From contig CM000436.1 of assembly GCA_000165345.1 (NCBI GenBank), forward strand, positions 640,001 through 704,000: a DNA stretch of 64,000 nucleotides, written 5' to 3'. A program made the position numbers and the translations under genes. A model generated the notes under the pieces. It saw only the letters and a program-made list of their open reading frames with translations. It was not told where the DNA came from and ran no database searches. Below, piece by piece: positions 1,087 to 62,600 of this stretch (position 1 is the stretch's first letter; the number at the start of each line of letters is the position of its first letter).

Positions 1087-2494
1087 AATTTTTTTTTCTT
1101 TTTTTAAAGTCAAAGACCCTTTTAATATGTAATTTAGCTTAAAAGGTTTTGTATTGGAATAAATATTATAAAGCTATTTGGAAGAAGTAATGATTAATTA
1201 TCTAGTGTCTCCTTGTAGCAAGAAACACAAATTTAAATCTTCCAAAGACTTTGCAAAACCAAACAACAATTTAGTTGTGGAGATTTTCTTTTAATTGTTT
1301 TGTTTATAACTTTATTTATCACCCTCACTGTTTTGGCGCGTGAACCTGGCTTCAATTCAAAGTTCAAATGATTTTTGACTTAAAAATGATCAGGCTATTA
1401 TCACAGGTAAAAGCTAAATATAAGCTCTATATGAGAAAACAATCATTTAAATTCTTTCTTGATTTTATGAACCTTTGTTGATCTTTCTTTGAAATGTATT
1501 TTTTTCCCACCCAATTAACATTGAAAATGCATGCAAGTTTTACCGCCAAATGTTTGAACAAAAAGAATTATTGCTTGTATTTGATGGTGAAATAGACTGA
1601 ATTTGAATTAAATAAATGGGTAAATACAGATAAAATTTAGGATTTTCTTAAGATTTTCTAGAAATTAGAATAGATGATCGCTTAATATTTGTTCTGAGGT
1701 AAATGGCATTGAGAGAGATTGATCAAGAGTGAAGTTTAGTTTATCGGCTGTTTATCTGAAAGCAGGTTGGTAATACACGAAATTGAATGCTAAATGGGAA
1801 CAAATGCGTTAATTTTTCAACTTATGGCTAATAAATAACTAATGGAGTTTCAGAAATTTTAATAGATATTGTGAATTGCACGGTTTTGTTGTTTTCCATT
1901 TCCAAATTAAAAACTAATAATTAAATAAAGTAGAAACTATGGATGAAAATTGATTGCCATTGTTTAGTTTTAATGGCGACATTAGATAGGGAGAAAAAAA
2001 AAAATCATTTTTTTTTAGGGGAAGAGGGGATAATAATAGTTTTATTTCATTTCTTTAAAGCCAACAAAGTCATTCACAAACGGAAAAAAAACTCCAGAAT
2101 TATCACAAAATCATATTTTATCTTTTAAATTAATTTACGCATTGTGCCAAATATTGCATGCAAGAATATGACAATCTTTTTTTCATGTCTACTATTGCTC
2201 TCCTTACTGACTCTATCTCTATCTTTTCTTGTTATCCACTCCTCTTTCATACAATCTATCAATAAGGTTTATATTTAACTGCTATAGTTTTAAAAAAATA
2301 TATATTAATAAATTATTAAGGCACACGGTTTTGGCGGTAAGTTGATATATTTTCTAATTTTTATGACAAACCAATAGAAATAAATAATACAAGATTCGAA
2401 AACTTGGAGTGATAGAATTTATTCATTTTATAAATAAAATAGGTTAATATCCAAGTTTTGTATCTTAATTGGTCCATACAGGAATTAGAAGAAA

Positions 2495-3419
2495 ATGGAG
2501 TTATCACTATGTTTCGAGAACCAAATGATTATTAAGGTAAGTAATTATATATAAGGATTAATAATAGAATAACTGAATACTAAATGATTAGCTACCTTCT
2601 TCAGTAATGGAGAAACTTAGAGAGAGAAAACATGGAGAAGTAGTTGGCTCTCTTAAATATGATGAAGATGGAAAGGTATGTTACTTTTTATATATGAGAA
2701 AAAACTGTAACAATTGTTAATTTTGTCTTATATCCTTGAAATTACTCTAATATCTATAGAGGGAGTGGGAAATTCTAAACTCAAAATTTTCAGAAACTAA
2801 AACAGGTAATACAGAAACTGATTCATTAAATCAAAATGAAAAAAGTGGATATTTGTTTATGAATACACCAGATAAACCAGATAAAATTTCAATGTACCCT
2901 TCCAAAATTCATACATTAGTTAGAAAAGGGAACTTTGTAACCGATGATATTAGACGTAGAATTAAAGAGAAAACTAAGAAGTCATCCACCATTGAGGATA
3001 CTAAGAGAATCGTTGGAGCAATGTACGAATCAAACTCTCAACCATTCATTTATTATGATATTAAGTCTGACCAGATGTCAGACGAGCCCAGAAATAGCTC
3101 GCTTAGCTCAATATATAAGAAGAAGCCGGCCACATCAAGTAGTCAATCTTCTGCTAATATAGAAGGTAATAATTATTCTTCAGGATTAAGCTCGAGTGCA
3201 AACAATTTAAATAGTAGTTCATTAGAAAGCTTAAAGGAGAATATTTTCAAAATATTCGAAGAAAAAGGAAGCGAAGGAGTTTCACTCAAGGAAATTGAGG
3301 ATAAAACAATGAAGCCCAAACATATTCTCAAGAAAATTGTTGAAGAAATTGCAGTTCAAGCAGGTAGAGGCGGAAGAAGGCATATATGGTATTTGAAACC
3401 ACAATTTATTGGTAAATAA
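2495..3419 (+). CDS. TFIIF beta (RAP30)-like winged-helix protein. The main ORF is 2859..3419; a putative 3-exon model is join(2495..2536, 2592..2675, 2805..3419)
   Basis: The C-terminus ENIFKIFEEKGSEGVSLKEIEDKTMKPKHILKKIVEEIAVQAGRGGRRHIWYLKPQF follows the RAP30 winged-helix pattern (FEKHQYYNLKDL...KQPVVYLKEILKEIGVQN...WELKPEY). Upstream, two in-frame candidate introns are 2537-2591 (GTAAGT...TTAG) and 2676-2804 (GTATGT...AACAG). They extend the frame to ATG 2495 or 2607. Confidence is good for the main ORF and low for the upstream exons. Confidence 0.45.
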
Positions 3420-3819
3420 TTCAAAAAAATTTTGTTTTATCATCACTTTTAAAAAATTTCTATTTTTAAAAATAGTATTTCTATTCCTAAACATTTTTTC
3501 CTGCATGCGATGTTTTTTCATTGGTGTTTGGCGCCATGTGTGGGGAAATTGAACACCTATGCAAATTTGCGTTGTCAGAATGCAAAATTGCAAATTTACC
3601 GGCGCACATAGGAAATAAATTATCGGGTTTTATTAAATATAAATAAAAAAAGTTAATTGTTTCAAAATTTCGGAATACTTGACCAAAATTTATTTCCTTA
3701 CAAAATGTTTAGAAGATGGCTGTTTTAAAAAAAGTATAATAAACAAAAGAATTAATTATTGCAACAAATTCTTCATAGTGAAAAACTGAATGGTGATGTA
3801 ATTTTCATTGGTTTCACTG

Positions 3820-18429: not shown

Positions 18430-20169
18430 TTAATCAGCAGCTCCAACAGTTTGAATACCACTCTTACCACTTTCTTTAATAGCAATATACCTACTACCTT
18501 TACTTTCTAGCCTATCATCTCCGGATGCTTCAGATTCTTCAGTTTCTTCATCATCATCAAAAATTAATTTACCTTCTTGAGAGTTGCTCGAGGTAATACC
18601 TTTTAAAGACTTTCTTTCTTTGAAAGGTACTTTTGATTCAACTTTAGCAGTGAATTTTAGAGTATCAAATTCAGTAGTAGGTAAATGCTCTGATTCATAT
18701 TCAGTATTTTGAGTAATAAAAACCTCGCTAGGACCTTGTGTTTCAGTTGAAGTAATAGAAGGCTCAATATTTGTTTCAACAACAGTAGAATTCACTAGTC
18801 TCTGGGTTGCCTTTGATAACTTTTCTAGATTGCTCTTTTCAATTACAAATTGGCCATAAACTTGAGGAATTCCTTGCCATCTAATGAAGTAATAATAAAC
18901 AGCGGCAATAACATAGTCCATTTCGTTCCACTTTCTTGTATTATACTTGATATTTGTTAAAGTACAGTATCTGGTTTTTTCAACAGAATGAACCCAAGTC
19001 TTTAAAGGAGATTTCTTCCAAAGTGAGTCTGGATACTGCTTCCATGCTGCTCTAGTCATTGGTTTCTTCTTTTTTTCTCCTCCATATGTTTGTTTCCCAA
19101 AATCTAGAAAACGGAAGATTTTCTGCTTTAAATCTCTAAACCATTTCTTAATACCATTTTCCTTGTAATTTGATCTTTCTACATTACCAAGAAGATATTG
19201 TAATTGCCTTTCATAGAGAATTACTGAGAGACCAAAAAGTCCTTCAGGAGAAAGTAATAAATTGGGTGAAAGTTTCTCTAGAGCTTCAGATGAAAGCTCA
19301 TACTTTTGTAACTCAATATGTTCATAAATATTTCCAAGATACTCAATTGAAGAAGGAATTCTCTCCAGATTTACAGCATTCTCATTATTGCCTTCCTCTG
19401 GTGGTAAAGTCGTACTTTCGGAATGTATTTTCCATCCAGGTTCACAGTAAACAACATTGGGATTTCCAATACCTTTACATCTTTCTTTAGAAAAGCATCT
19501 TCCTTGAAAGAAGTCTCTCAAAAATGGCTTAATTTCACAATTTGGACAGTAATACTTCTTCTGAAAAGCTGATAAGGTATTTTTTCCACTATAACCTTTA
19601 CGTTTTCCTCTAAACTCGATATATTTTCTAATAACAGCCAATGGATATAAATCATATAATGCAACTTTATCCAATGGAATATTTAGCACTTTACTTTCCT
19701 GTCTTGTGATCCAAGATCTTATTTGAGAAACTGTTACTACAGGATGTTGATATGAATATAGTGGACCCCAAGGAAATAATGGCTGGCTATCCAGATCTTT
19801 TGGTTGTCCATTAAAGTTTCTCATACTAGACAAAGAGAAGAAATAAAGCATGATTGAAGTCATTGTAATTGTCTCTCCATCTGCTCCTGTTAAATCTATG
19901 CTAGTACTTGTTGGCACTCCATTTGTATAGTTTGGATCCTCTGGATTAAGTGGGTAAAACAAGCTTGATAATACTTGTGGTACAGTTCCTCTCTTCATTG
20001 TTGTCATGGAGAGATAAATATTCTCTCCAATAGTACCTGCTAAGCTTCCAAACAATGTCACACCTGCTCCAGCAATGAGTGCAACATCCACTGATCCTAA
20101 TGATCCACCAGATACTAACACAGCTAATAGCCCAATTACAAAGCACAATAAAATTACTTTTCCTTTCAT
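18430..20169 (-). CDS. Secreted protein, member A of a three-gene tandem paralogue family
   Basis: ATG at 20169. Signal peptide MKGKVILLCFVIGLLAVLVSG. Shares motifs with the next two genes: MTTMKRGTVPQVLSS, DGETI, LFPWGPL, ILYERQLQYL, AAWKQYPDSLWKKSP, GIPQVYGQFV. Confidence 0.65.
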   Translation of the reverse strand: MKGKVILLCFVIGLLAVLVSGGSLGSVDVALIAGAGVTLFGSLAGTIGENIYLSMTTMKRGTVPQVLSSLFYPLNPEDPNYTNGVPTSTSIDLTGADGETITMTSIMLYFFSLSSMRNFNGQPKDLDSQPLFPWGPLYSYQHPVVTVSQIRSWITRQESKVLNIPLDKVALYDLYPLAVIRKYIEFRGKRKGYSGKNTLSAFQKKYYCPNCEIKPFLRDFFQGRCFSKERCKGIGNPNVVYCEPGWKIHSESTTLPPEEGNNENAVNLERIPSSIEYLGNIYEHIELQKYELSSEALEKLSPNLLLSPEGLFGLSVILYERQLQYLLGNVERSNYKENGIKKWFRDLKQKIFRFLDFGKQTYGGEKKKKPMTRAAWKQYPDSLWKKSPLKTWVHSVEKTRYCTLTNIKYNTRKWNEMDYVIAAVYYYFIRWQGIPQVYGQFVIEKSNLEKLSKATQRLVNSTVVETNIEPSITSTETQGPSEVFITQNTEYESEHLPTTEFDTLKFTAKVESKVPFKERKSLKGITSSNSQEGKLIFDDDEETEESEASGDDRLESKGSRYIAIKESGKSGIQTVGAAD

Positions 20170-20822: not shown

Positions 20823-22472
20823 TCAATTGTTTTTTTTATTTTTTGCAAGTTTCTTTTTTTTATTCTTTCCTTTGTCTTCGCCCTTTTTCTCGTCCAACTT
20901 TCTTTTTTTGCCTTTGTTCTTTTTTTTGTCATCATTTTGTTCTAATTCTAATTGTTCGGATGATTCTTTCGTCTTTTCACCATCGTCCTTAATGCTGGTC
21001 TTGTTTACATCAGATTCAGAATTTGATTGGACAGCCTCTTCAGCAGTTTCTGTATTATCTATAGCTTTAGACTCTTTTTTAGAGCCCTTCTTGTTTTCAA
21101 CAAAAGATCCGTCTTCTTGTGAATACTTTTTGATTTTTAGAGGGTTGAAACTGTACAATTTGCTAAATTTGGAAACTTTCTCCTGGTATTGTCCAAATAC
21201 TACAGGAACTCCGAGATCTCTTGAAAATGTGTTAAGTACTACTCCGATTGAATAGTCATACACATTCCAATTAAGTGAATTATACTTACTTTTCTTAATT
21301 TCATCAGAATATACTGCATAAACAACTCTTTCAAATGATTGGAATGGACTGTGTTTCCACATAGAGTCTGGAATCATTTTCCAAGGTGCAATTCTAATTC
21401 CATTGCGTTTTCCATGGCCTAAGGAAGCAATATCAGTAACTGCTGCATAAGATCTCTCAAATACTCCAAGAGACTTTCTGAATTTACTTGCATCATAGTT
21501 AATTGGATCAATTGATGAAATATCATATTGCCTTTCTCTCCAGTAAAGTATTAAAGCAAGAGCAAGTTGTTCTATCTTCCTATTTTTGTATGTAACATTT
21601 TCTTTTGAGACTACATACTTATTTTCCATTACTCTCTCCAAGTAATCATATATAGCAGTAAGCTCCCCCCATGATGTGTCATCTGATGGAGTCCAAGGAG
21701 TTTCTTCATAATGAACTTTATTGCTGTCTTTTTTTGCATGTACTGGAGATCTTGATGAAATCGCCCTACGATGTGACACACTAGTCATATCAGAAAGACC
21801 CCCTTCAATGGTATTTTTTTTTTTCTCTTTCACTTTCTCCTTCTCCTCCTCTTCCTTTGGTTCTTTTTGCTTTTTTTTATCCTTCTTCGAACTTCCTACT
21901 GCATTTGATGCTTTGTTGATTGTATTGGAAATGGATTCTTCCACAACATTAATAGTCTTATCTCTATTTTCTGAAATGAATCTTGCTACTCCAATTGGAT
22001 AAATATTCCAAGAATCAGCCTCTGTTATGTTTAAGCGTATAAACCCTCCGCCTATCGATGTTAGATAGTCCCTGATTTTCTCAACTTCTTTAATTGGATT
22101 ATTTTCTATTTTGAAAGAACCCCATGGAAGCATTGAAGCTTCAACATTAGAATTTGGAGCTTTAGATGCAAACTCTGAAACAAGCAATGAGTAAAAGTAC
22201 ATTAACCCAGCAACTGTAGTTCTTGTTTCTCCATCCCAATTATTTGCATCAATATATAATAGTCTTTCATCCGTTCCATTTTCTAGTACAGGACACCTTT
22301 TACTTGCTAAAATTTGTCCAAGAGTTCCTCTATCTGTTTGGGTAAGCATGTAATATACAGCTGTTCCTCCTAAAAGTCCTAATGTTGTGGAAACAGTAAC
22401 CGAGGCAAAACCATTGGAAAAAGAAAACCATCCAAATAGAATTTGTAATATTAATAAGGCCTGCAACTTCAT
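20823..22472 (-). CDS. Secreted protein, member B of the tandem paralogue family, with K/E-rich internal and C-terminal tracts
   Basis: ATG at 22472. Signal peptide MKLQALLILQILFGWFSFS. Family motifs: YYMLTQTDRGTLGQILAS, NWDGETR, MLPWGSF, LALALILYWRERQYDISSID, GHGKRNGIRIAPWKMIPDSMWKHSP, DYSIGVVLNTFSRDLGVPVVFGQY. Confidence 0.65.
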   Translation of the reverse strand: MKLQALLILQILFGWFSFSNGFASVTVSTTLGLLGGTAVYYMLTQTDRGTLGQILASKRCPVLENGTDERLLYIDANNWDGETRTTVAGLMYFYSLLVSEFASKAPNSNVEASMLPWGSFKIENNPIKEVEKIRDYLTSIGGGFIRLNITEADSWNIYPIGVARFISENRDKTINVVEESISNTINKASNAVGSSKKDKKKQKEPKEEEEKEKVKEKKKNTIEGGLSDMTSVSHRRAISSRSPVHAKKDSNKVHYEETPWTPSDDTSWGELTAIYDYLERVMENKYVVSKENVTYKNRKIEQLALALILYWRERQYDISSIDPINYDASKFRKSLGVFERSYAAVTDIASLGHGKRNGIRIAPWKMIPDSMWKHSPFQSFERVVYAVYSDEIKKSKYNSLNWNVYDYSIGVVLNTFSRDLGVPVVFGQYQEKVSKFSKLYSFNPLKIKKYSQEDGSFVENKKGSKKESKAIDNTETAEEAVQSNSESDVNKTSIKDDGEKTKESSEQLELEQNDDKKKNKGKKRKLDEKKGEDKGKNKKKKLAKNKKNN

Positions 22473-23015: not shown

Positions 23016-24566
23016 TTATAAATAAGTGTTTTGAGTAATAACTATTTCTGCATCGTATCTAACTGAATGCGGAACCGGCACATTATATTTCTGTAGATTT
23101 AAGGCTTCTCTTTCCAAGAGGAAGTGTTTTCTGCTTACTTTACTAACATATTGCCCATAGAGTATAGGAACTCCAAGTATGATTGAAAAGAAGTGAACAA
23201 CTGCTGCAATTGCAAAATCAAATTCTGACCATTCAGACGAACTGTAGATATCTGAACGAACTTCCTGTTGATGAGATCCGATAATGAGGTATTCTAAAGT
23301 CTTTGAAGGATTTAATTTCCAGTGTTCTTCTAGAATACGTTTCCAAGGTGCCACATTGACACGATTCTTTCCGTGAGCCAAGCCAAAAATATCAAAAAAG
23401 CATAAAGTAAACCTTATAACTTTATCTTTAAACCTGGCAAACGAGCATTTTTTGAAATTAACAGCATCGATATAATTAATATCGTATTGTCTCTCTCTTA
23501 GATATAAAATTAAAGCTAAGGTGAAGTTAACCAGCTTTTCATTCAGTTTGTTCTTTTGACAAATCTCATTTAGAGAACTTCCCTCCAAAGTATTTGTATA
23601 TTCGTGTATAACTTTCAACTCTTCAATTGCTGTTCTTTCACCTGGAATCCAAGGAACTGAAATATAACTAACCTTAGGATTTAATTTGTTCTTGCAAACT
23701 ACCGAAAGCCCCCCAATACAATGTTTCCTTCTTATTTTGAAATCAGAAATGACAGATGATGAAGATTTCAGTTCTTTTGTTTGGAAATATGAATCTAATG
23801 TAGATCTCTGTCCAATCACAGTAGAATATGTTGAGTTATTTTCGTTTACTTCTTCAAAATTGGTTCTATTCCTCTTCATTTCTACAGATGATTCATTCTC
23901 CATAAGTGGCAGCTTAATATTTTCAGAGATATCTTGTTCTTTGTTGTCAGTTTTGGATTTGTTGTTGGAATCTTTTTTCAGTTTTGGATATTTTGCCCTA
24001 AATTTAAATTTCCCATTTCGCATAGAGGAATATTTTTGTATAACAGCCAAAAGATACAATTGCCAAATATCCACATTACTTAGGGGTATTCTGATATATC
24101 CACCTTTAAGTGAAACTAAATAGTCGTAAATCCTGGTCATAGCTTGAAGAGGGTCTTCATCTAAATTAACTTCACCCCAAGGTAATGCAGGCATAATTTT
24201 ACTAGAGTAAATTGAATACTTATCATTTAAATTGGGGTTTACTGCTAAGCTAAAATAATACAGCATACACGATGATACCATAATTGTATCTCCATCCCAT
24301 TTATCAGTCCGTATGCTAAAGGTATAGTCGCCAGTTCTATCTTTTTGAATAGGCAAATAAATACTCGCCAGAATCTTTCCAATTGGGCCCCTCCTGGTTT
24401 GAGATAGCATGTAATATAAAGAGACAGTCGAAGATGCTACAGAATAGGCTGTCAAACTAGTGCTGACTGATGGAGATGCGGATGCACTATAAAACCCCTC
24501 AGCTACATCGAGATTAAGGGTATAAATGCAAATTAAAAAAATAAACAGTGATCCCAAAAAATTCAT
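23016..24566 (-). CDS. Secreted protein, member C of the tandem paralogue family
   Basis: ATG at 24566. Signal peptide MNFLGSLFIFLICIYTLNL. Family motifs: LYYMLSQTRRGPIGKILAS, DKWDGDT, ALPWGEV, LALILYLRERQYDINYID, GLAHGKNRVNVAPWKRILEEHWKLNP, DFAIAAVVHFFSIILGVPILYGQY. Confidence 0.65.
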   Translation of the reverse strand: MNFLGSLFIFLICIYTLNLDVAEGFYSASASPSVSTSLTAYSVASSTVSLYYMLSQTRRGPIGKILASIYLPIQKDRTGDYTFSIRTDKWDGDTIMVSSCMLYYFSLAVNPNLNDKYSIYSSKIMPALPWGEVNLDEDPLQAMTRIYDYLVSLKGGYIRIPLSNVDIWQLYLLAVIQKYSSMRNGKFKFRAKYPKLKKDSNNKSKTDNKEQDISENIKLPLMENESSVEMKRNRTNFEEVNENNSTYSTVIGQRSTLDSYFQTKELKSSSSVISDFKIRRKHCIGGLSVVCKNKLNPKVSYISVPWIPGERTAIEELKVIHEYTNTLEGSSLNEICQKNKLNEKLVNFTLALILYLRERQYDINYIDAVNFKKCSFARFKDKVIRFTLCFFDIFGLAHGKNRVNVAPWKRILEEHWKLNPSKTLEYLIIGSHQQEVRSDIYSSSEWSEFDFAIAAVVHFFSIILGVPILYGQYVSKVSRKHFLLEREALNLQKYNVPVPHSVRYDAEIVITQNTYL

Positions 24567-24672
24567 TCTTTATTACTATTGAAGATTCCTCTACTAAACC
24601 CTTATTTTTCTCTTTCTATTTTAAAGTCGCTCTAGCTATTGACCGTTAGCGCCCTAAACTCCTCAATTATTA

Positions 24673-24684
24673 TTTGGCGGGAAA
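24673..24684 (+). promoter_or_regulatory. E2F/DP-like box TTTGGCGGGAAA, 107 bp upstream of paralogue C
   Basis: Exact 12-mer identical to the box at 12791-12802. Confidence 0.5.
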
Positions 24685-24872
24685 TGCTAAAGGTCATGCA
24701 TTAATAATTCTTTAAAAAAAATGTAATACGATATCGAAATTGTTTAATTACGAGACTTTCATGAGCTTTGATCCTTTTTACATTGAGTTTTTTGAATTAA
24801 TCCAAGCAGTATCTACAAGACCTATAAGCATAAAAAAAATTGTCCAAAAATGATTAATTCTACTTTTTTATT

Positions 24873-25360
24873 TTATATAGAAATCATACCTGTTTGTGGA
24901 TTAGTTCCTAGAGGCCTCCTAAATAACAAAATGTGGGGCTCAGGCCTAAAGTTGATTTGTTTTTAATTGTTTAAATCTTGTAGCTAACTTACTTATGTAC
25001 CAAGTAATGTTGCCATCCCCTAGATTGCTGTACTCCAAGCATTCTCCACTCCTGCTCAGAAAGTAGTCCAGTAGGTTTTGATTGGATTATTGCTTGAGCC
25101 TTTTTCGAAATCTGGAACAAATCAAGTAAAAAAAATCTTAATATTTCGAAAGACGAATCAAAATCAATCCACTTAATGAAATAGAATATTCGCAGTTTCG
25201 TCCTAGCTTCGTACCTAACTTACAGCTTTTGGTAAAGTTACATGCCTACAATTGTCCTTAATTTTCTTCCTTCAATTAGACGCTTCCTTACTTACCTGTA
25301 CTCATATACATCATCCTCGTATTTTGATGAATATAAGATATCATCAGGATAGTTCACCAT
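24873..25360 (-). CDS. CKS1: Cyclin-dependent kinase regulatory subunit (Cks1/Suc1), 4 exons: join(25360..25296, 25245..25224, 25111..24993, 24945..24873)
   Basis: Absent from the ORF track. Spliced minus-strand product: [21 protein letters not shown]|RHVTLPKA|[39 protein letters not shown]|[24 protein letters not shown]. It matches the CKS signature YSxKYxDDxYEYRHVMLPK...[35 protein letters not shown]. All three introns (50, 112 and 47 nt) start GTAAGT and end AG, and all phases are consistent. Unspliced, the frame stops at EYR-TAA. Confidence 0.75.
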
Positions 25361-25447
25361 TTTTACTTGCCCAATAGTTCAGCATTAATAAATATTAGTT
25401 ATTAATTTATCCGCAGGAATATTCTACACATACGAAAATGAACTACC

Positions 25448-25455
25448 TGGCGCCA
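25448..25455 (+). promoter_or_regulatory. Palindromic E2F/DP-like box TGGCGCCA, 88 bp upstream of the CKS1 ATG
   Basis: Perfect palindrome in the spacer between the MTR4-like 3' end and the CKS1 5' end. An E2F site upstream of a cell-cycle gene is a biologically coherent pairing. Confidence 0.55.
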
Positions 25456-25609
25456 AAATGCATTTAATTCAGCTAAATTTCGTCCGAAAATACTAGTGCT
25501 AAAAAAAAGGAATGAAGGGAAAATGTCTAAATAAAACTATTTAAAACATGATCTAATGAGGCAGGGGGAAAACAAAATAAACTCAAAAGGATATACCTAA
25601 CAATTCTGA

Positions 25610-28600
25610 CTAAAGATACAAACTTGGAGTAAAAACGATGCCCCTCCTGATAAGTGCAATACCTTCTTTGAGCTTTTTCTCAAGGTCATCATTTCCAATA
25701 GATTTTGTCGCGCTTGCAACTTGTCTGAGTAGCTCCTCCAGCCTCCTCAGACACCTTATTACGCTTCCTTCGTAAAAGCTTGTATTTTCAAGAATAGATG
25801 CAAAACTCTCTCCTTTACTCCACTTAAGAATTATAGGCATAATTTGGGGTCTAAATTTACTCATATATTGTGTTGAATCAATGTTTAAACCCGATTCTAA
25901 TGAAATCTTTACAATCATTTTTGCAACGTCCAGAATATTATCATATCCCACTGCTAAAGTAGAATCTTCCAACTTTATATCAGGGCATTTCTCGTCATAT
26001 AATAAGGATGATAAAATAGCAACAATATATTCAATTTTTAATTCTTGGAAAAAGACATTGTTGAACAGTAATTCAGTGATTAGAAGTTCATCTGATGTTG
26101 AAATTTCACAAGCTATTCTCCCTTTCAATTGCACAATGCTATTTTCATCAGTATAATCTAAATTCTTTAAGACCTTTCTCATTCCAAGCAATTCCTTCTG
26201 CATAATAGTATCGTATTCGTGCTCCCTCAAATCTTTTTGTATTTCATCTACTCTTTCTTTCAAGTGACGTCTGTGAGAGCTAATATATAACAATAGCAAA
26301 GCTAAAAATGGACATTTGTTTATTAAAATAGACTCTCGTTGTATCTTCTTTTGTAGCTCCTTGAATTTATCTAGTTTATTGCAAATTTGAGAATCTGATG
26401 ATGCATTTCCAATGTTGATGATTTCATCACCATAGTAGTCTATTAGTGGAATCTTATCCTTGCCAAGATGTTCGAGTACCTTATTTAATGAAATCTCTAA
26501 TGACATCAAGCCTGGAGTATTTTTATTGGTAATATTACTTCTATTCTGAGGAATATTTAATCGAACAGTACTAATTTCTTGTATTGACGAAACAGTGCAA
26601 TTAAAAACACAATAATCAGTGTTCTCATTAATAGAGTCTTCAACATTCTTCTCTAACTCTTTAACAATCTTATCATATACTAGTTTTGGGAAACGCTTCT
26701 TGTTCAACAGAACCCTAACATAGAACTTTTCAGAATCTTCTATACCTGTTGAGTTAGAGTTTGAATTTTGCGTTTCACCTTCCTGCTGATTGTTGCAATA
26801 TTCACTTTGATTCTCAAGATTTTTGTTCTTATTTGGTTCAATTAAAAATCCAGTATCCACCTTTTTGTTTCTGGGGTTTGGATTGCTAAGCAAAACTCCC
26901 CAGCCTAAATCTAAATACTGGTTTTGGCTAAACCCATTTAAAACATTCATATCAAATATATATTTTGGATCTTTTAAACCAAGTTCCAAAGTCTCATTTT
27001 CATTTTGAGACTCTAAATTCTGTAAATTCAGTGAATTTGCTTCTTCTTGTTCTAAATATGGTAATCTAATATATACTAATCTTCCTGGATTAAGGAATCT
27101 GTGGATTATCCTAGAATTGATAATGAACTTTTTTATATATTTATTAAGCTCAATCATTTCTGTAAAATGATTGAAAAGAGTGTCTCCAATTCGAATCAAT
27201 GCCTTTTCTGACTCTATATGATACCCAGTAGCTTTCTCATTCATAATAATGTCGATATCCGCTTGGTTTACTTGAGTCTCAAAACCACAACTCTCTTTAC
27301 AAAGATCGACAAAATTACTAATTTTACTATGTATTGAGGCTTTATCCCTCAAAAATTCTTTTTCAGAAGGTAACTCAACCTCTAATAAGTTTGAAGGGCG
27401 TGGATTCTTTGAATAAAAGTCTTTTGAATCAAATAGGTTTTCATCTTTACAAATAACTTTATATCCTGAAAAATGTAAAAAATATGCATAAGCAGTTAAA
27501 AGTTCAGAAAAATTTGAGAATTCTGGTAATATCAAGCTTTCCTTGAAAGAGCCATAGATATCATCCACTCCTTCAACTTTTCTACTCATAACTACAAATT
27601 GATTTCCTTGGGAGTTGCTTTTATTCAAGCTGGTTCTACTTTTTTTAGTAGGACTTTCTGAATGATTTTGTTCTTGATTCGAGTCAATGACTTTAATAAT
27701 TGGCTCTGAAACTTTGTAATTATCCAAAATGCTCTGAATCCTATTAATTTCTTCGTGTAAAGATACAGTCTTTTTCCTCTTTAAGAATTGTGAAAATGAT
27801 CGGTTAATCATATATTCAGGATCAGCCCCTTCTAATCTTAAAAGGTTTAAAAGCATATTATATCCAATATAAAATTGGCTATCAATTCTTAAAGGTTGTC
27901 CAGTAAGCATTGACTTGATAGCCCATGGATCAGCAAGTTCATCAATCATAGTAATTGTGATACCTCTATCATCAAGACCTCTTCTTCCTGCTCTACCACT
28001 CATTTGAATAAACTCTCCAGAGTTAACAATTCTGTACTCCTTTCCATCAAATTTTCTAAGTGAAGTAAAGATAACCGTTTTTGCAGGCATGTTAATTCCC
28101 ATAGAAAAAGTCTCTGTAGAGAATAGTACTTTAATAAATGACTCTCCAAAAAGGAGCTCAACTATTTCCTTTACAACAGGAAGTAAACCTCCATGATGAA
28201 TTCCGATACCCCTTCTCAATAATGGAAGCATTCCAACAACCTGAGGAATGTTTCTATCTTCCTCCGCGAGAGTTGCCAAGGCACTATTAAAAATGAAGTC
28301 AATACTTTCCTTTTCTTCTTCAGTGGATAAATCAATGTTTTTCAAAGATAATGCATTTAACTCGCAATCTTTCTTTGAGAAGGAGAAAACGATTATCGGA
28401 AGATAACTCCTTTCTTGGCACATATTCACAATGCTTTCAAGGTCAACTCTTAGCTGAGCTTTACCTGCATGTTTTTTCTGTTCTTTCTGAGAGCTATTAC
28501 TCTCAGCAGCAATTTTCAGAGCTGACAACGCCTTCATATAGTTATCTTGTTTGAAAACCTTATTTTCATCCATAACTAAATAAACTCCATTACCTCCTGC

Positions 28601-29452
28601 CGGGAATATAAAATGTTGTAGAGGAACAGGTCTGTAATCTGTGTACACAACGTGACAAGGTTGATGTTTTGTCCTACAAATCCACTCCGCAAACTCTAAA
28701 TGATTTGGAATGGTAGCGGACAAGAACACTAGTCTTACAGTATCTGGCAAAAGAATGATAGACTCTTCCCAAACAACGCCTCTTTCTTTATCTCTCATAT
28801 AATGGATTTCATCAAAAATGACCCAGGCTATTTCTCTTACTAATTCGCTTCCTCTATAAAGCATAGATCTAAGAATTTCAGTAGTCATTACCATAATTGA
28901 CCCAAGTGGATTTACTGTGACATCTCCAGTAAGAAGTCCCACATTATTATCACCAAACGTAGTTCTTAAATCTCTGTACTTTTGATTACTCAAGGCCTTA
29001 ATAGGAGATGTATATACAACCCTCTGATTACTCTTTAGAGCCATTGCAATAGCATACTCTGCTACGCAAGTTTTCCCTGCTGAAGTATGCGCTGAAATTA
29101 ATACACTTTCTCCTATTTCCAAACAACCTATAGATACAGCCTGAAAAGTATCTAGTTTAAATGAGTATTCCTTTGCAGGAATTTTTTTTCCATTCTCATC
29201 ATACTGAACTCTGAGCTTAGAATCTGTTGGAGCAACATAACCGCATGGCCTAATACATTCATGTACGCAATTCGTCCCTGACTCATATACAATATGTTCA
29301 ACTTTCATGCTCTCATCGAATCTCGTGTGATTAGCAACGATATTCTCATTTTCATCAACCAATTCCTCTAAATTATCATCATTTTTGCTGTCAACTTTAG
29401 CTTTCTTTTGAGTCTGAGGTGAATCATCAAATGATCTTTCTTCCCTTTCCAT
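25610..29452 (-). CDS. MTR4: Ski2-family DExH RNA helicase, closest to MTR4 (exosome cofactor), carrying a large low-complexity insertion
   Basis: ATG at 29452. Helicase motifs AHTSAGKT, TSPIKALSNQKYRDL, GLLTGDVTVNP, VIFDEIHYMRD, LSATIPN, HHGGLLP, SGRAGRRG. The C-terminal DSHCT tail SVIRCLRRLEELLRQVASATKSIGNDDLEKKLKEGIALIRRGIVFTPSLYL closely follows the MTR4 ending (IIRCMRRLEELLRQ...DIVFAASLYL). An N/Q-rich insert gives the 1280-aa length. Confidence 0.8.
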   Translation of the reverse strand: MEREERSFDDSPQTQKKAKVDSKNDDNLEELVDENENIVANHTRFDESMKVEHIVYESGTNCVHECIRPCGYVAPTDSKLRVQYDENGKKIPAKEYSFKLDTFQAVSIGCLEIGESVLISAHTSAGKTCVAEYAIAMALKSNQRVVYTSPIKALSNQKYRDLRTTFGDNNVGLLTGDVTVNPLGSIMVMTTEILRSMLYRGSELVREIAWVIFDEIHYMRDKERGVVWEESIILLPDTVRLVFLSATIPNHLEFAEWICRTKHQPCHVVYTDYRPVPLQHFIFPAGGNGVYLVMDENKVFKQDNYMKALSALKIAAESNSSQKEQKKHAGKAQLRVDLESIVNMCQERSYLPIIVFSFSKKDCELNALSLKNIDLSTEEEKESIDFIFNSALATLAEEDRNIPQVVGMLPLLRRGIGIHHGGLLPVVKEIVELLFGESFIKVLFSTETFSMGINMPAKTVIFTSLRKFDGKEYRIVNSGEFIQMSGRAGRRGLDDRGITITMIDELADPWAIKSMLTGQPLRIDSQFYIGYNMLLNLLRLEGADPEYMINRSFSQFLKRKKTVSLHEEINRIQSILDNYKVSEPIIKVIDSNQEQNHSESPTKKSRTSLNKSNSQGNQFVVMSRKVEGVDDIYGSFKESLILPEFSNFSELLTAYAYFLHFSGYKVICKDENLFDSKDFYSKNPRPSNLLEVELPSEKEFLRDKASIHSKISNFVDLCKESCGFETQVNQADIDIIMNEKATGYHIESEKALIRIGDTLFNHFTEMIELNKYIKKFIINSRIIHRFLNPGRLVYIRLPYLEQEEANSLNLQNLESQNENETLELGLKDPKYIFDMNVLNGFSQNQYLDLGWGVLLSNPNPRNKKVDTGFLIEPNKNKNLENQSEYCNNQQEGETQNSNSNSTGIEDSEKFYVRVLLNKKRFPKLVYDKIVKELEKNVEDSINENTDYCVFNCTVSSIQEISTVRLNIPQNRSNITNKNTPGLMSLEISLNKVLEHLGKDKIPLIDYYGDEIINIGNASSDSQICNKLDKFKELQKKIQRESILINKCPFLALLLLYISSHRRHLKERVDEIQKDLREHEYDTIMQKELLGMRKVLKNLDYTDENSIVQLKGRIACEISTSDELLITELLFNNVFFQELKIEYIVAILSSLLYDEKCPDIKLEDSTLAVGYDNILDVAKMIVKISLESGLNIDSTQYMSKFRPQIMPIILKWSKGESFASILENTSFYEGSVIRCLRRLEELLRQVASATKSIGNDDLEKKLKEGIALIRRGIVFTPSLYL

Positions 29453-53622: not shown

Positions 53623-56600
53623 TTATGGTTTAAAAGAAATATAGACTAAATTGGCAAGAGCCTTTGCAAAACGGTGCCTGCTTGGAGACTGAGATTGAGC
53701 CACAAAAGTTGATATTTGCTTGCATATGGCAGCAACTAATGACTCTAATGAAAGCAACTTATCAATTGTTGCCATTAACTCCTCATTATCCAAACAGTTT
53801 GAAAGTTGTTCTCCGCTCAAGTGCTCTTCTAAATGAAAATCCGAATCTAGGTTAGAGTTTGTGCCTGAAATGGCGTCAACCTTAGAAATTTCTTTACATG
53901 CCATAAGCATGAACACTTCAGACGTGTATAAATGTTGAAATAGTTCAGTAGAAATGTATTTAATAAAAGTAGAAGCTAAGATGGCAGAAATTCCTTCTAT
54001 CTCTGCATTAATTTCTTCATTATCCTCTTTGTACTTTTCTAAGCTTTTAAATATGCTAGGATACTTTATATATTCAGAAATTAGCTCCATTTTTTTAATG
54101 TTTATTTGTTGTTCCAAACTTTCAGGCAGTCTATCGTCCTTTGGGATGAAGCTCAAAGAAACCGGCGAATTTAAGTCTTTATTTGTATTTTTAGAAGCGT
54201 CTTCCAAAAAGAACTCATTAGAAGAGTTCATATCCATTCTTTCATGACCAGAAGTATCTACTTTTCTAGATTCGAGCTCTTCAATTGTATTCAAAGAATT
54301 TGAACTCGATAAGTTATGCCCTAGCTTTTTTTTGTTAGAACAATTCTTGATATCCGTTGTTTCTTTGGATAACTCTGGCTCTATAGCTAAATCTGTGGCT
54401 TTTGCAACTTTTCTGGGTCCATCAAAGTCATCTTTTATAGCTCCTAATGCCTTATTATTGTTCCATAGAGTATTAAACCTAGATAAAGCTGTCTTTGCGA
54501 AAGTTGGAATTGAAATCATCCCAGAATTTGGAGAGTAGTTGCTAAATGAAAAGTGGTTACTTTGCGAATCAGAATACGGAGAAGAGTTTAAATCTGAAGT
54601 TTCAATATCTTTGTTTAGGAAGCTCTTTTGTCCCAAGACTCCAATCCCAACATTTGAGTCAAAGTAATCATTTACCATCTCGCCAAAAATGTTCCTATTA
54701 AACAGTAAATGCTGAGTCTCTGCCTCCTTTCTTATTCTATCCAGCTCCTTTGGAATTGTTGAAAAAGCTGTTTCTGTTATTTCCCAAACTTCCTTTGGGA
54801 AATAATAACGGCATTTATTCAAATACATATGGCAATCATCTATTTTTCTTCCTAGTTCCTTTAGAGTTAACTTGCTTAGTTTTGTTCCAAATCCTGTGAA
54901 ATCTTTCTCGCTCCTATCATGGCGATCCGAAACAGAAACAATCATATTTTTCCCACTTCCCCTTCTGAAATTTTGGTCAGACCTTTGGTATTCTGGCTTC
55001 AATTTCAAGGATCCATCCCTCAAAATCTCTGAATAAATAATGAAAGGAACTATGCAGTTTAGAAATTGCTGATAACTATTTGTTTCTACTGGATTAAGAA
55101 TAGGCAACAAGTAGTCATTTAATACTTCGCATTCACCTGAATACTTAATCTGGATAAACTTGTTTGAAGGATTGGCTTCACTACTTAAATTCGAATCAGT
55201 GATTCCGTTATGGAATATGTCCATTATTGTGCTAACTCCATCTTTAATTATTGTTTTGGAGATCTTACTATATTTACTTGGTAAAATATATTGATACATA
55301 TCATCGCCAAATAACTCATAAGATAAAGCAATGCTATCAACATTAATTACCTGAATATTATCTGCATTCGGCCTTTCGTCAGTCTGTAACCTACTATCAA
55401 TTCTTCTCAATGAGTCACTACTAGATAACTTTTCTGTATTTATTCCAGAAAGGCTTTTCGAGATCCTGACCTTGTTCATTGATGTGGGGCTCAAATTCGT
55501 GGAGATTGGCGAGCCTATTGAATTTTGATACCCCATTAAAGACAATGAGGAAGAGTTCTGAACAATCAGATCATCAAGAATCATCTTCCTATGGATTTCG
55601 TTAACGACTTTTGACCACTCATGTTCATCCAAAATTATTGACAAAATGAGTTGCACTGACCTCCAAACTGACCTACTCAGCTCTAGAGTAGGACCTTCTA
55701 GCCTAACTAAGAGAGGAATCAAAAGCTTTTTTATGCTAGATCTTAATTGTTCAATTTCTCCCAGAGATGGTTTCATCTTCTCCCAATTCTGCTTTATTAA
55801 AATCAAAATATCTAGCAAAAGGTACATTTTTTGGCTAGTTATATTCATATCCATGTCACTATTTGTGATGAAATCAACAAATATTTCCGGAATTTTATTC
55901 TTACATGTCAGAGCTTTAGAGAGTTCTTCAGATTCAAATACAGCAGTTTGGAAGCTTTCAACTTGTACCTGGCCATCATAAGATTCTCCTTGAGATAAAA
56001 ATAGTAGTTCAATGAATTCTATGTAAAAAGAATCCCCTTCTTCTGTACCAGTTGGAACTCTTTCTTCTTGAACATACTTAAGATATATTGTAGGATGATC
56101 TGGAATAAATTGAAGAGAAAATCCTATACTTATTTTTGAAATTAAGCAAACCAAGTATCTAAGACAAACAAGGCACTCCTTCAAATAATCTGCAAATACT
56201 AATCTATTTCTTGTAGTAATTGGAGTTTCTGTTAAATCAAATTTATCCAAACTCGATTTTCTTCTTCCAAACTCTTCCGGATCAATTTCATTTGAGCTTT
56301 CCCCCCCGCTTAAATCTGTAAATGAATTTGACATAGAATCATTTTCATCAGTATCCTTATTAATTGATTCATCAGAATTTTCTTTTTCATGTTCGCTGAC
56401 TCCTAGTTTAATTCTGTTTCTAAAATCTGCATTATCTTCATCATCAGTTCCATTTCTAGATTTATATTCCTCAAAGGTATCAAAATCTCTAGAGCCATTA
56501 AATTCTTCTCGACTTTCGTTAAGTTCTTGGTAATTTTTTTCTTTCAATCTAAAACCTCTCAGATTTAGATTTCCCCTAGCAGTTTTATTTGTTTCTCTTC

Positions 56601-59600
56601 TAAACAGTGAACTTCCTATCACGTTTGTAAAGCAAATATTTACAAACTTGAGTAGAAAGTCTTTGCTCGGGTATCTTCTTGATTCTAAGCAATACCAAAA
56701 GTACCATTGGAAAAATATAAACCCACTCTTTTTTGAATATGGGTTATTTGAAGTCTTGATAATATTCAAAATGCAATCTAAGAAATCCAAATTATAAATA
56801 TTGTCTGGATTATTCTCGTCAGAAGAGACATGGATTTCCGAGTTCGACTCTTCAGTAGCTTTCTCATAAGGCTTTGTGTATTTCATGAAATCCTTATAGT
56901 AAATGCCTAAAGGAGTTGGGGCAAGTAGAATTAATGCACTCATACTGTAAATTGAATTCACTCTTTTTAAGAAAGGCTTAATAAAAGAGATCATGGATGT
57001 TGTGATGTCTGGGTTATGAATGAATAAATAGCACAAAAGCTTTCCAATAGCATAATCAAATTCGTTTGGCTTTATTAATGATAACTTAAGTTGGTTCGCG
57101 TCAAAGAATGTTAGAATTGCGTCCGAATCATTTAAAGCAAGGAACAATGATCTCAAAGCGTTGCTGCTTTCTAAAGCTCCCATATTGATGTATCCCAATG
57201 TTGAACAGCATCTTAAAAGAATGGTTGAAATAAGCTCTGGAAAATGTCGCTTTGCAAGAATTTTAATTGCTGAATCATTTGTCTGAAGAAGGATATCCAA
57301 AGCAAGAGTACTAGACCGAACATTAATATGTTCACTAGATAATATTGAAAATATTGAAAATGGAAAGAGTAAAGACTTATTTGCCAAAGAGAAGGAACCT
57401 GCTGAAGCAACGCCGCCAGCACTAGCAGCAATCCCCATAGAGAAAGTGCCACTAACTACTATTCCAGTTCCAATAAGATTTGTAACAGAATTATGCGTAG
57501 GAGACATTGCAGTGTTTAAAGGTGCTTGAGTACTAGAGTTAGTGCTTGAAATATTAATATTTGAAGACGAAAGTATTTTAATGCACAATTTCTCATTCAT
57601 CTCAATTATATCCAAGTACTTCTGCTCAGTGTTATTTAGCACGTCCGTAAGGTATCGGAAAGACTCCAACAAAAGGGATTTGTCCTTACCAATATAAGAG
57701 ATGGCTTTTGAGTAGATAGGATCTACTATGCAAATTACATTTATCATATTTTTTAGGCCTCTTACCATCGCTGAGTTTGCTGAGCCTTCTAAAGTATTCG
57801 TATTCGATTTTCCATTTTCCAATGGAATTTCCACTGTTGTCCATTCGCTGCTCAGACCTCCACTGTTATTTGTCAAAGCATCTCCAATGAAATCTCCGCT
57901 CAAAGAGTCATTAGCAACAATATGATTGATATACTTTTGAGGCTGGATACATTTCCTAAATATCTCTGATATAGCTGCCTGGAATTTGAAAGAAACAACA
58001 TTTCTTATGAGCAAATAGACAAAGTGCTGAAGTTCAGAATCTTTAATTGATGATATTTCTTCAAATAAAGATGAGACAATTTTGCAAGCAAATGATTCGC
58101 TTTCTAATATATTCTTGTTTATGGAAAAAAGAACTCTAACAGTCTCCACGCTGGAACGAGCAGTTATCTTATCTGCATCGTGGAATGATGGAAGGATATG
58201 TTGGCACAATGGTCTTAAACAGTACGCTGGAATGCAGCTCGCCAAATTATACAATAAGTCCAGATAAGTGGGCGGAAGAATCAGAGATTGGATATCTGAA
58301 AGTATTTTTTGTTGGTCCCCCGTTGGCTCGCCATTTATTCTTTTTTGATCGTTTTCAGATTCAACTTCCAAGTTATTAGAAAATGAAGCCCAAGACATTC
58401 TGTTATTTGAATACTTAAGGCTATCATCCGCTCCAAAATCAATCACCATTATTTGTGACAAATCAATTTTCTGAGTCCATATACATCTCTTCATACATTC
58501 TTTAATACATTCAAAGGCTATTAAGCGTACATATAGACAGGAATCACATGTTCTACCCAAAACTAGAGCTATACAATGCATCCAAGAAACCCATGTTCCT
58601 TTTGGTGGAACTCCTTCAGAGTTTTTATTATTAAACAAGACAGAATCATTTTCAGGCTTTTGGATGATTTGGGATTGCTGGAATATTTCAACAAGAGGGG
58701 CCTCACACAGCAAGCAATACACAACATGGATGCAAATGCACCTTAATACTGAAGAAGTTGATGTAGCTGCAAGTCCAAGTAGACCCTCAAGAAGATGAGT
58801 TAGTCCTGCCCAAGAAGGCATGTGCGACTTATATATGCTCAGATATAGCCTATCAAGAGATTCAAGTATTTTGAATACTGAAACCTCAGAGCTACTAGAT
58901 GGGACAGAAGAGTCTTCAATAATATTCATCATCTCTTCCAACCTGTATCCTCCATCAATAATATTCAATGAAGGAGTTGGAAGATTGAATGTATCAATAT
59001 TCCTTTTGTAAAATATCGAGAAATCCTCTCTTGTTAAACATCTGAACTGAATCCTAGAAGATACAGTTACCAAAATAGTCAGACAAGAGCTAAGAACCAA
59101 AGGGATATGTTGCGGTAAAAGCGGAGAAGGGAATGATATTAGTGATATAGAAGCATCCAATGCATCTAGCAGAAGCTTATTAAAGACAACCGAATTTGCC
59201 TGGCTGTTTGTATTTCCAGTAGCGGAATTATTGTTACTATTTGATAAATTACCTGAACTAGAGATTAGACCACCACTAGTTCCAGTTGTTGTATTATTTC
59301 CTGTTGTATTTCCGCTTGTTGTATTGACATTTGAATTGTTTCCGGAATTCATTGTGTTAGCAGGGCCTATATTAGCACTCCCAGTAGCTGTGTTGTTTGA
59401 TGTATTAAGGTTAATATTACTCAAGTTCTTGGTTTGACCAGAAGTTCCAAGACTATTGGGGAAAGTATTGGATATTCCAGAAGGCTGTTGAGTTGAAGAT
59501 GATATATTCGAATTAATCTTTGAATCGACAGAAGTAAGTCCGCTTATTTCAGTGGAGCCACTACCCGAAAAAGAGTTAGTTTGTTTAAATGTGTCAGAAA

Positions 59601-62600
59601 GCCTCTTATTTCCATCATGAGAACTTTTTGACAGAGAATTACCATTCTGAATTCCGTTGTAATGGTATCTGGCCAATCCTATTTTAGCTCCGCCTGGTGA
59701 GATTTCAATAGAAGAACAGCTATCTCCAAAAGAACCATTCCTGCTGTTAATCCCCAAGCTATTCTTATTTTTCATATAGCTAAGGTTTGAAATCACATTC
59801 TTTAAGGCAGGGTTTGCAGAGATAGTGCTGCTGCCTAGATTGGGAGACATATCTAAAGATGAGCAGAAAACATCTGAAAAATTAACATTTCCAGAATCTG
59901 AAATCATATGTGGGTTTTCACTTAGAACCGATAAGACAGAAAGAGTCAAATTAAAAGGACCAAACTTTGCATCTTCGCTTTCCGAATATTGATTAGAGCC
60001 ACGTCCTAGCTTTTCTGAAGATGGAATTTCCCCACAAGGAGTATCAAAATCATTTATTGTGTTAATAGTTCCCAAATCTTCATGTGAATACTCCAGACTT
60101 TCAAAACTACCTATGGAAATATCTCTATACTTCACCATGCTTCTAATGTAGGAACCAGAGGGATCTGTGTGAATCCTTTGAGAAGAAATTGAACTAGATG
60201 TGCTGTATGGCATTCCAGATGCAGCCTTGAGCAATAACATAGAGTTTAGGGGAGCAGGTGGGAGTTCGATACTAGCTGAAAATACAATAATGGTGAGCAA
60301 ATATGGGAATATACGATCTCTAAAAGAGCTGAATAGTTCCAAGGAAATGTCTCCACAGTCAAGCCCATAAATACCCTTTTTGAGTTTGGTATTTCCTTCT
60401 CCAGAATGGAATCTACTGAGAACTGAATTAATTCTAGATGACAAAGTAAGCTCTTGATTACTCTCAGAAGAGGACAATGCCTGAAAAGCTACTTGGATTG
60501 CCTTCAATGCGGAGCATTGTAATTGTAATTCTTTCTCCTCCTTTACAGCAGTTTCTAGTACTTGAAGTATTTTTCTTACAGTTTCTGTGGCAGAATTGAA
60601 TAATAGAATTGGTACTTCTCCTATCGAATGACCAAGTGAAAGGATTAGTGTAGATCTGAGTTGTTCTGCTTGTACAACCGCTAATGATTTTCCGAAAAAG
60701 CTAAAAGCCCCAGAGCGCTTGTTCGCTGCATCTGACCTAATTAAATCCAATAGATACTCAGATATATGAACGAAATGGTTCTGGTGACTACTTGCATACC
60801 CAATACCCCTGCCACAGCTTCTTTGCAATATAGTTGAGTTGATTCCAATGGCATGGAAGAAATGTTGAAGATCAGAAAATCGCTTAGAAAGATCTTTGAA
60901 TATTTGAATCTCATTTGAACTTAATAAATCTTTGCTTAGTTCACCGCCGCTTCTACCCTGTGATCCAGCCAAACTCCCTCCAGATGCAGCTGCAACATTA
61001 GTCACGTTAGATTCATTTGAATTAATAATATCAGGAGTTAGTAGTCCATCAAGAATATTTGAAATAAGAGTTTCTCTCAAAAAGTTTAAATTTGTTTCCT
61101 CCGGCTTTTCAGAATCTGAAGATTCATGTGAGCTAATTTCTCTTAATAAAAGCCCTAATAGAGAATACATTCCTGCTCTCTGAAGCTCTGTAGGAGTTTC
61201 AGAACTTTTTTGTAATTTATCAGACCTAATGTCTTTGCAGGCAGAAAACAAAGCTAATAACAGATTGGTCAATGTATCGTTAACAATATCAGAGCTTTTA
61301 ATTCCGGCTTTATGTTCCTTCTCAGCTTCTCCAGTAGATGAATCTGTCTTTTTTGTTAGCAAGTCTTGCCTTTCAACTTGATTTAATGGACTGGATGAAA
61401 CTCCACCACCAGAAATCCCTGAAAATATATAGGAAATGCACTCATCAACAAGTGGAAACCAACAGTCAATATCAATTTTTGACGAGAGGTTAGATATTTC
61501 ACTTGCTTCATGTAATGAATTTGAGAATGTTTGAGCAGAAACGCAATTTTGAGAATCTTTAACTTTTGCGGGAGATATTATTGTGTCAGCTATCTCTATA
61601 AGTGATTGAAGTCGTTGGGAAGGAATACAAGCCCAAATACAGCTTGGAGTGGAAACTACCATTGGAGATATCCATTGAAGGCATTGGAGTGACCAATATG
61701 CGAGTACACCATTATAAATATGAGGATCATGTGCATACATGCAAAGCCAAATAAAAATTTTGAATGGGTCGCTAACTGTTAAATATTTCGTACTTTGAAA
61801 CTTAAATGCTCTGATAAACACCTCCGGTGTTGTCTTTCGATACAGGTTCTGGCAGGATTTAGACAGTGATTCGCAAACGGTAGGCATAGCAGATCCAAGC
61901 TTCAAGTGATTAACAGCGTCAATTAATAATGGCCACAGCAAATCTGGAACTAATGCTGTTAACTCTTCAGATAAAATTAACTGCGCATTACACCTGAGAT
62001 CCCAAAGGCTCGGAGGATAAATCACAGGTATTTTAGTTCCCTCGCACCCCTGAATTGTCTTAAGGTAATCTGCCTTTTGTCTTTGTAAATGTCTTAAGTG
62101 TTCATTCTTAGCTTTTTGTTCAGGAACTGCAAGCAATCTTAGAAAATATGTTAACATTTCTGCTGAAGAAGGGGATGGTGAAATCCAAATATCTTTATTT
62201 CCGCCTTTATTTGTTAAATGAATACCTTCTTGCTCTTCTGATTCATTCGCTCCTTGCTCAGTCTTTGAACTTCCTTTTCCTAAATCTTCAACAATAGAAC
62301 ATTCTGAAGTTGCGCCAATATGCAAAAATCCGTGTTGGGATAGCTCGCAAATTATTCTGCATAATATAAATGCTATCGAATAGTCCAATCCCTGTTCAAG
62401 AGTGGTTCTGGCGAGTCGAAACATAAGGCATCCAAAAGGCGAATTAGAGTTTTCTGCAACTGTAATCTCAGATTCACCGATTCTAGAAACTTTTTCAAAT
62501 GGAATATCTTCAATAACATTACTTAATATGAACATTGTCGAGAGACGATTAGCTGACTTTATATCAATATTTTCAAATAAAAACCTAATTACTGTTTCTC

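Follow-up and report, generated by a model that had tools for sequence, protein, structure and literature searches.

Cks1 is a universal eukaryotic adaptor of cyclin-dependent kinases (CDKs). In yeast and animals, Cks proteins bind CDKs and dock substrates that are already phosphorylated; the roles of the residues in their anion pocket and hinge are known from published CKS1 structures.

In Cryptosporidium parvum, introns are present in 10.8% of genes, and the intron-bearing genes have 2–10 exons, with a mean of 2.6 (2015 reannotation, PMC4637869). A CKS gene is already known in this organism (cpbgf_8002510, XP_001388430.1), and in C. muris it has been known since the RN66 annotation. We found nothing specific on Cryptosporidium Cks1, or on a cyclin-dependent kinase regulatory subunit of this genus, in the literature, and the CKS gene does not appear in the supplement to the 2015 reannotation.

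Here we analyse the gene within a window of 64,000 nt, the whole stretch of DNA considered, from C. parvum chromosome 8. A reading of the sequence alone had proposed that a spliced CKS1 gene of four exons lies hidden in an apparently empty spacer. We conclude that the feature is real and was correctly identified as CKS1, that its structure needs revision to five exons (101 aa), and that the gene was known before.

The locus and its neighbours

Each of the two flanking ORFs encodes a protein identical to one from C. parvum Iowa II. The CpBGF locus tags here start with cpbgf_800, which places the locus on chromosome 8. The features of the locus, in the order of the minus strand, are as follows.

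25610–29452, minus strand: gene for a 1280-aa 'Mtr4p like SKI family SFII helicase', exact match to EAK89441.1 of C. parvum Iowa II
25448–25455: E2F-type palindrome TGGCGCCA (also given as TTTTGGCGCCA), 88 nt upstream of the CKS ATG
25296–25360, minus strand: exon 1, 65 nt; ATG at 25360; ends with two bases of the R22 codon; phase-2 donor CAG/GTAAGT, its phase conserved in nine genomes
25246–25295, minus strand: intron 1, 50 nt, GTAAGT..TAG; identity to C. muris ~50% (exon 1: 86%)
25224–25245, minus strand: exon 2, the micro-exon, 22 nt; finishes R22 and encodes HVTLPKA; 20 of 22 bases as in C. muris
25112–25223, minus strand: intron 2, 112 nt, GTAAGT..CAG; holds an in-frame alternative acceptor with its AG at 25173–25172
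24993–25111, minus strand: exon 3, 119 nt; ends with two bases of the K69 codon
24946–24992, minus strand: intron 3, 47 nt, GTAAGT..TAG; read and spliced by script
24890–24945, minus strand: exon 4, 56 nt; finishes K69 and ends with the first base of the G88 codon
24822–24889, minus strand: intron 4, 68 nt, GTATGA..TAG; same phase in nine genomes
24778–24821, minus strand: exon 5, 44 nt including the TAA at 24780–24778; finishes G88 and encodes LVDTAWINSKNSM
23016–24566, minus strand: gene for a 516-aa membrane protein, exact match to EAK89440.1 of C. parvum Iowa II

The CKS gene thus sits between the Mtr4-like helicase gene and the 516-aa gene, with all three on the same strand. The spacer between the two larger genes (24566–25610; 1,043 nt) contains no ORF of 60 aa or more, as the sequence-only reading had stated, and to this extent the description of a hidden gene is apt. 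It does not extend to public annotations, which hold the exact protein for C. hominis and several models for C. parvum; a gene at this place in existing annotation, which the sequence-only reading had proposed to look for, is present as cpbgf_8002510 and XP_001388430.1.

Several other features of the window were recorded in passing. The 516-aa gene and a 549-aa gene (20823–22472), both on the minus strand, form a tandem pair of paralogues (35% identical over 222 aa, E 3e-37) whose products are, according to one source, membrane proteins with signal peptides; the ORF at 18430–20169 (579 aa) may be a third member of this family. The 2970-aa ORF at 53623–62535 stays open in frame for 269 further codons 5' of its first ATG (62536–63342, minus strand), so its N-terminus may be longer, or an upstream exon may be involved. 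No obvious hidden domains were found on a quick look at the remaining spacers of the window.

Exon–intron structure

The sequence-only reading had placed three exons on the minus strand at 25360–25296, 25245–25224 and 25111–24993, and had named three GTAAGT..AG introns of 50, 112 and 47 nt. Splicing by script reproduced these exons and introns exactly. The same reading had a fourth and last exon ending at 24873. The start of that exon stands and its 3' end does not: a fourth intron (24889–24822) and a fifth exon (24821–24778) follow, which puts the end of the gene 95 nt beyond 24873. The length of 69 codons given for the gene also has to be abandoned, because the exons proposed with it total 279 nt, or 92 aa, and the conserved structure has 101 aa.

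Past ...GTNPQT the DNA reads ACAG/GTATGA and, 68 nt further on, TATAG/GTCTTGTAGAT. Splicing of intron 4 gives a 101-aa product with the C-terminus GLVDTAWINSKNSM. The GTAAGT donors of the other three introns are stronger than the GTATGA of this one. The five exons (65 + 22 + 119 + 56 + 44 nt) form a reading frame of 306 nt, or 101 codons, within a gene span of 583 nt (25360–24778). In the predicted product, junction 2 is covered by the peptide ...LPKAISKK... and junction 4 by ...NPQTGLVDTAWINSK. Five exons in 101 codons is a dense arrangement, yet it lies inside the known range for C. parvum.

Micro-exons are commonly of 30 nt or less. Exon 2, at 22 nt, is preceded by AG and followed by GTAAGT, and is conserved in this form in 9/9 genomes. 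Its skipping causes a frameshift and a stop after 29 aa, and retention of intron 1, 2 or 3 brings a premature stop in each case, for intron 1 directly after R22. Splicing rebuilds the CKS blocks EYRHVxLPK and EWRxLGVQQSxGW, together with a third block, as had been claimed, and micro-exon skipping or retention of any of these introns truncates the product. A 33-nt probe across both micro-exon junctions had no match in JGI metagenome contigs, and no protein from sequencing-run assemblies that was at least 90% identical to the CKS product was found in the protein collection searched.

The U1-like string ACTTACCTG at 25290–25298 is the complement of the intron-1 donor CAG/GTAAGT (25298–25290), as had been proposed. 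A U1 snRNA or other RNA gene at 25290–25298 was considered and rejected: an Rfam search of 24400–25800 in E-value mode returned no matches, from U1 or any other family. Across the whole window, neither Rfam families nor tRNAs were found.

Family membership and predicted fold

The identification of the spliced product as Cks1/Suc1 is firm. With the Pfam CKS profile (PF01111), which the sequence-only reading had put forward as a check, it scored 119.1 bits (cut-off 27; E 9.3e-35), and the match takes in positions 1–67 of the 68 in the profile. Among PDB entries, human CKS1 (1buh_B) matches with E 8e-27 and CKS1/CKS2 matches lie at E ~1e-26; CKS2, Saccharomyces cerevisiae Cks1 and Schizosaccharomyces pombe Suc1 also match.

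We then built an AlphaFold2 model of the 101-aa protein from an 18-sequence alignment; its mean pLDDT is 89.8. The model has the CKS fold, with a predicted four-stranded beta-sheet and two helices that superpose on solved CKS structures. When the predicted fold was compared with the PDB by Foldseek, the best 16 matches were all CKS1 or CKS2, and the next match had E 0.1. The best human CKS structures match the model with a target-normalised TM-score of 0.88–0.94, an rmsd of ~1.6 Å and 60% identity.

Residues K13, R22, S59, W62 and R79 align with K11, R20, S51, W54 and R71 of human CKS1, which form its anion/phosphate pocket; in the 18-sequence alignment R22, S59, W62 and R79 are invariant and K13 is nearly so. 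The beta-hinge, H68-K-P-E-P-H73-ILLFRR79 (HxPEPH followed by ILLFRR), is complete only across the junction of exons 3 and 4.

From these features, the locus is probably the single-copy C. parvum Cks1/Suc1 gene (cpbgf_8002510), encoding a cyclin-dependent kinase regulatory subunit. A minus-strand transcript would lose four GT..AG introns (50, 112, 47 and 68 nt), and its five exons would be joined into 101 codons. The product would presumably bind the parasite's Cdc2-type CDK through the beta-sheet and the HxPEPH hinge, and would dock already-phosphorylated substrates through the conserved anion pocket K13, R22, S59, W62 and R79. We infer both the splicing of the C. parvum mRNA as in the five-exon model, which has comparative support, and this biochemical role.

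Conservation across Cryptosporidium

The DNA of nine genomes from eight species was compared: C. parvum, C. hominis (two assemblies), C. tyzzeri, C. meleagridis, C. canis, C. xiaoi, C. muris and C. andersoni. The lengths of the first four exons, 65/22/119/56 nt, are kept in 9/9 genomes, and the last exon varies between 38 and 56 nt. All eight splice sites are intact in every one of the nine, with GT..AG at identical phases for all introns, whose lengths range from 46 to 118 nt. The gene order Mtr4, CKS, ~500-aa gene is conserved throughout the genus.

The C. hominis gene has the same 583-nt span, the same five exons and the same neighbours; its exons differ from those of C. parvum at 4/306 positions, all synonymous, against ~8% of positions in the introns, and its deposited proteins (OLQ19317.1 and PPA64692.1) are identical to the C. 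parvum five-exon product at 101/101 residues. At the greater distance of C. muris, exons 1–4 are 74–91% identical to those of C. parvum, whereas introns are about 50–55% identical. The 105-aa proteins of C. muris RN66 (XP_002139993.1) and C. andersoni (XP_067068832.1) are 82% identical to that of C. parvum; their genes also have five exons, with the first four of the same lengths, and the same phases and synteny. Their last exon is longer (56 nt, with the tail ...NPNKKEVEKQ), and their introns, of 59–106 nt, cannot be aligned with those of C. parvum.

Two further loci were read individually. In C. xiaoi (JAWDEY010000008.1, locus ~3001–3613) the 22-nt exon, ACATGTTACACTACCCAAATCT, is present, and its use gives a canonical CKS of 99 aa. 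In C. meleagridis (CM077714.1, locus 1501–3811) the DNA contains an intact five-exon, 101-aa CKS gene, and the orthologue of the 516-aa gene comes after it as a gene of its own.

Deposited gene models

The exact 101-aa sequence is deposited for C. hominis as 'Cyclin-dependent kinase regulatory subunit' (OLQ19317.1, PPA64692.1), and correct five-exon models are deposited for C. muris RN66, C. andersoni and C. serpentis. For C. parvum-type genomes we found four models, which contradict one another; 0/4 match the conserved structure, and all contain exon 3 and most of the CKS domain. Models that depart from the conserved structure include the following.

EAZ51470.1/XP_001388430.1, C. parvum: 86 aa, 'Cyclin dependent kinase regulatory subunit, partial'; lacks exons 1 and 2
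WRK34005.1 (cpbgf_8002510), C. parvum CpBGF: 121 aa; 60 nt of intron 2 added
KAL5366986.1, C. parvum: 103 aa; the same 60 nt added, PEPHILLFR lost and intron 4 read through
WKS79505.1, Cryptosporidium sp. 43IA8 (source label): 91 aa; starts within intron 2, intron 4 read through
C. tyzzeri/C. hominis model: 78 aa; exon 4 frameshifted
C. xiaoi model: 108 aa; lacks the micro-exon
C. meleagridis 'CKS family' model: 569 aa; micro-exon skipped and fused to the neighbouring gene, an artefact

Genus-wide there are at least nine differing deposited models, with 78, 86, 91, 92, 95, 103, 108 and 121 aa and the 569-aa fusion. The gene cpbgf_8002510 has been described as a putative CpBGF-specific singleton, and that of C. 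meleagridis as a fusion, a single long gene (PMC11655656). The consecutive numbering of EAK89440/EAK89441 and of QOY40007/QOY40008, taken alone, suggests that this gene is missing from both the 2004 annotation and the GenBank annotation of CPATCC.

We considered the 121-, 103-, 91-, 86- and 78-aa models and the 569-aa fusion as candidates for the conserved form and rejected them; in the DNA of the nine genomes, either their sites are absent in sister species or invariant CKS residues are destroyed.

Weighing the alternatives

The best explanation of the locus, to which we give a probability of roughly 90%, is a five-exon, 101-aa C. parvum Cks1/Suc1 gene with four introns. The multitude of contradictory deposited models, and a spacer with no ORF of 60 aa or more, could be read as signs of a decaying pseudogene or of a chance assembly of ORF fragments that yields no functional CKS. 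Chance splicing choices could not produce a Pfam E-value of 9e-35, the eight splice sites are intact in all nine genomes, and the CKS model at this locus was the only one returned for these genomes; we regard decay or chance as scarcely credible. It is also very improbable that intron 4 is kept and exon 4 runs on to the TAA at 24875–24873, giving the 92-aa protein ending in GMISI that follows from the four-exon proposal. Read-through ends do occur in KAL5366986.1, WKS79505.1 and C. canis KAJ1615083.1, the CKS domain (Pfam positions 1–67) is whole even when exon 5 is left out, and the GTATGA donor is the weakest of the four. However, the read-through tails (GMISI, GMIFYTK and GMTYEIVS) are unrelated between species, whereas the exon-5 peptide conforms to G-x-VD-x-x-W-x-N throughout the genus, even in C. 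muris, behind GT..AG boundaries of the same phase in 9/9 genomes. Intron 4 begins with GTAAGT in both C. muris and C. andersoni, while C. xiaoi has GTAGGT; the phase is unchanged. The start of exon 5, TG-L-V-D, fits the motif TG-x-V-[DE] that is common in CKS proteins of distant lineages (Amoebophrya, Vitrella and others). In a collection of 15 billion proteins the 101-aa sequence is present and the exact 92-aa sequence is absent, and we dropped the 92-aa model for the 101-aa model on these grounds.

The choice of acceptor for intron 2 is the more serious question. An alternative AG at 25173–25172, 60 nt upstream of exon 3, adds 60 nt (25171–25112) in the 121-aa and 103-aa deposited models; its use would give a 121-aa protein with a 20-residue insert, as in WRK34005.1. 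The CpBGF annotation that contains this model comes from RNA-seq-trained BRAKER2 prediction with manual curation supported by Iso-seq tracks (PMC12179316), and KAL5366986.1 shares the –60 acceptor. Against its use as the main site, C. meleagridis, whose intron is likewise 112 nt long, lacks the –60 acceptor, as do C. canis, C. muris and C. andersoni; in the last two, a TAG stop is found right at the exon-3 acceptor. In the 20 insert codons, C. parvum differs from C. hominis at 3 residues and from C. meleagridis at 5; the corresponding figures for the 101 exon codons are 0 and 2. An insert at A29/I30 would break the helix predicted at 28–40 in the AlphaFold2 model, and no other member of the 18-sequence CKS alignment has a hydrophobic insert at this point. 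We therefore consider the 121-aa product unlikely, though clearly less so than read-through of intron 4. By comparative evidence the 60 nt would be intron, but because the CpBGF model was curated with RNA-seq and Iso-seq, the –60 site may be used in C. parvum. A less ordinary reading, which we offer with considerable doubt, is that either all C. parvum-type models retrieved are structurally wrong and the true product has 101 aa, or the parvum/hominis/tyzzeri clade recently gained an intron-2 acceptor that yields a second, 121-aa isoform with a 20-residue insert in helix 1. If this is true, under either alternative few conserved exons of this genome, in which ~90% of genes are intronless, would be shorter than the 22-nt one.

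The upstream palindrome

The sequence-only reading had pointed to a perfect E2F palindrome 88 nt upstream as fitting for a cell-cycle gene. The palindrome and its distance, counted from the ATG, are as described, with TTTTGGCGCCA at 25448–25455; the argument drawn from it does not hold. TGGCGCCA occurs in 5 copies in the window against 0.13 expected, 5/5 of them intergenic, and it is the most over-represented upstream motif of C. parvum, found at genes of 163/200 expression clusters (Oberstaller et al. 2013, PMC3734150) and tied to no particular expression pattern (PMC3734150). Its core, [GC]GCGC[GC], was not found within 260 nt upstream of the C. xiaoi CKS gene or within 1,480 nt upstream of that of C. 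muris. Because the motif is genome-wide and absent at these two orthologues, it is not a marker of cell-cycle regulation for the CKS gene, and we set it aside as uninformative: the site is neither conserved upstream of C. xiaoi and C. muris CKS nor, from the expression clusters, specific to the cell cycle.

The other perfect TGGCGCCA palindromes of the window lie at 3529, 34654, 43780 and 46522, all in intergenic gaps. A TGCAT at 25458–25462 (minus strand) lies directly 5' of the palindrome near the CKS gene, on the gene strand; TGCAT is an over-represented ApiAP2-type motif (PMC3734150). A textbook E2F-type site, TTTCCCGCCAAA, is present in the 3' flank of the CKS gene at 24673–24684 (minus strand), 107 nt before the start codon of the 516-aa gene (ATG at 24566).

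Comparison with other CKS genes and proteins

The new biology in these results is slight. Their practical value lies in curation, as one model fits nine genomes and could correct the inconsistent records. The locus also shows that short genes dense in introns are poorly handled by ORF tracks and automatic predictors in this compact genome.

Outside the genus, the CKS gene of Vitrella brassicaformis (CDMY01000446.1, 501–1154) has four introns, as in Cryptosporidium, and a second exon of 42 nt. Its intron after nt 87, in phase 0, is at the exact position of Cryptosporidium intron 2, and its intron in the HEPEPH hinge is 3 nt from that of Cryptosporidium intron 3, but intron 1 of Cryptosporidium, which creates the 22-nt exon, is not common to Vitrella. 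Because the position of intron 2 is common to both, the intron downstream of the micro-exon may be old. The CKS gene of Gregarina niphandrodes, by contrast, contains just one intron, located elsewhere, and is without a micro-exon.

At the protein level, human CKS1B and CKS2, S. cerevisiae Cks1 and S. pombe Suc1 (PDB 1buh, 4y72, 1qb3, 1sce) share the fold predicted for the C. parvum protein, together with its K/R/S/W/R pocket and HxPEPH hinge; the two human proteins are ~60% identical to it. Compared with human CKS1, the loop and helix past LPKA are six residues longer in C. parvum. Unlike the human and yeast proteins, the C. parvum protein has a 14-residue C-terminal tail that comes from a separate exon, and its CDK binding is putative, by analogy with them.
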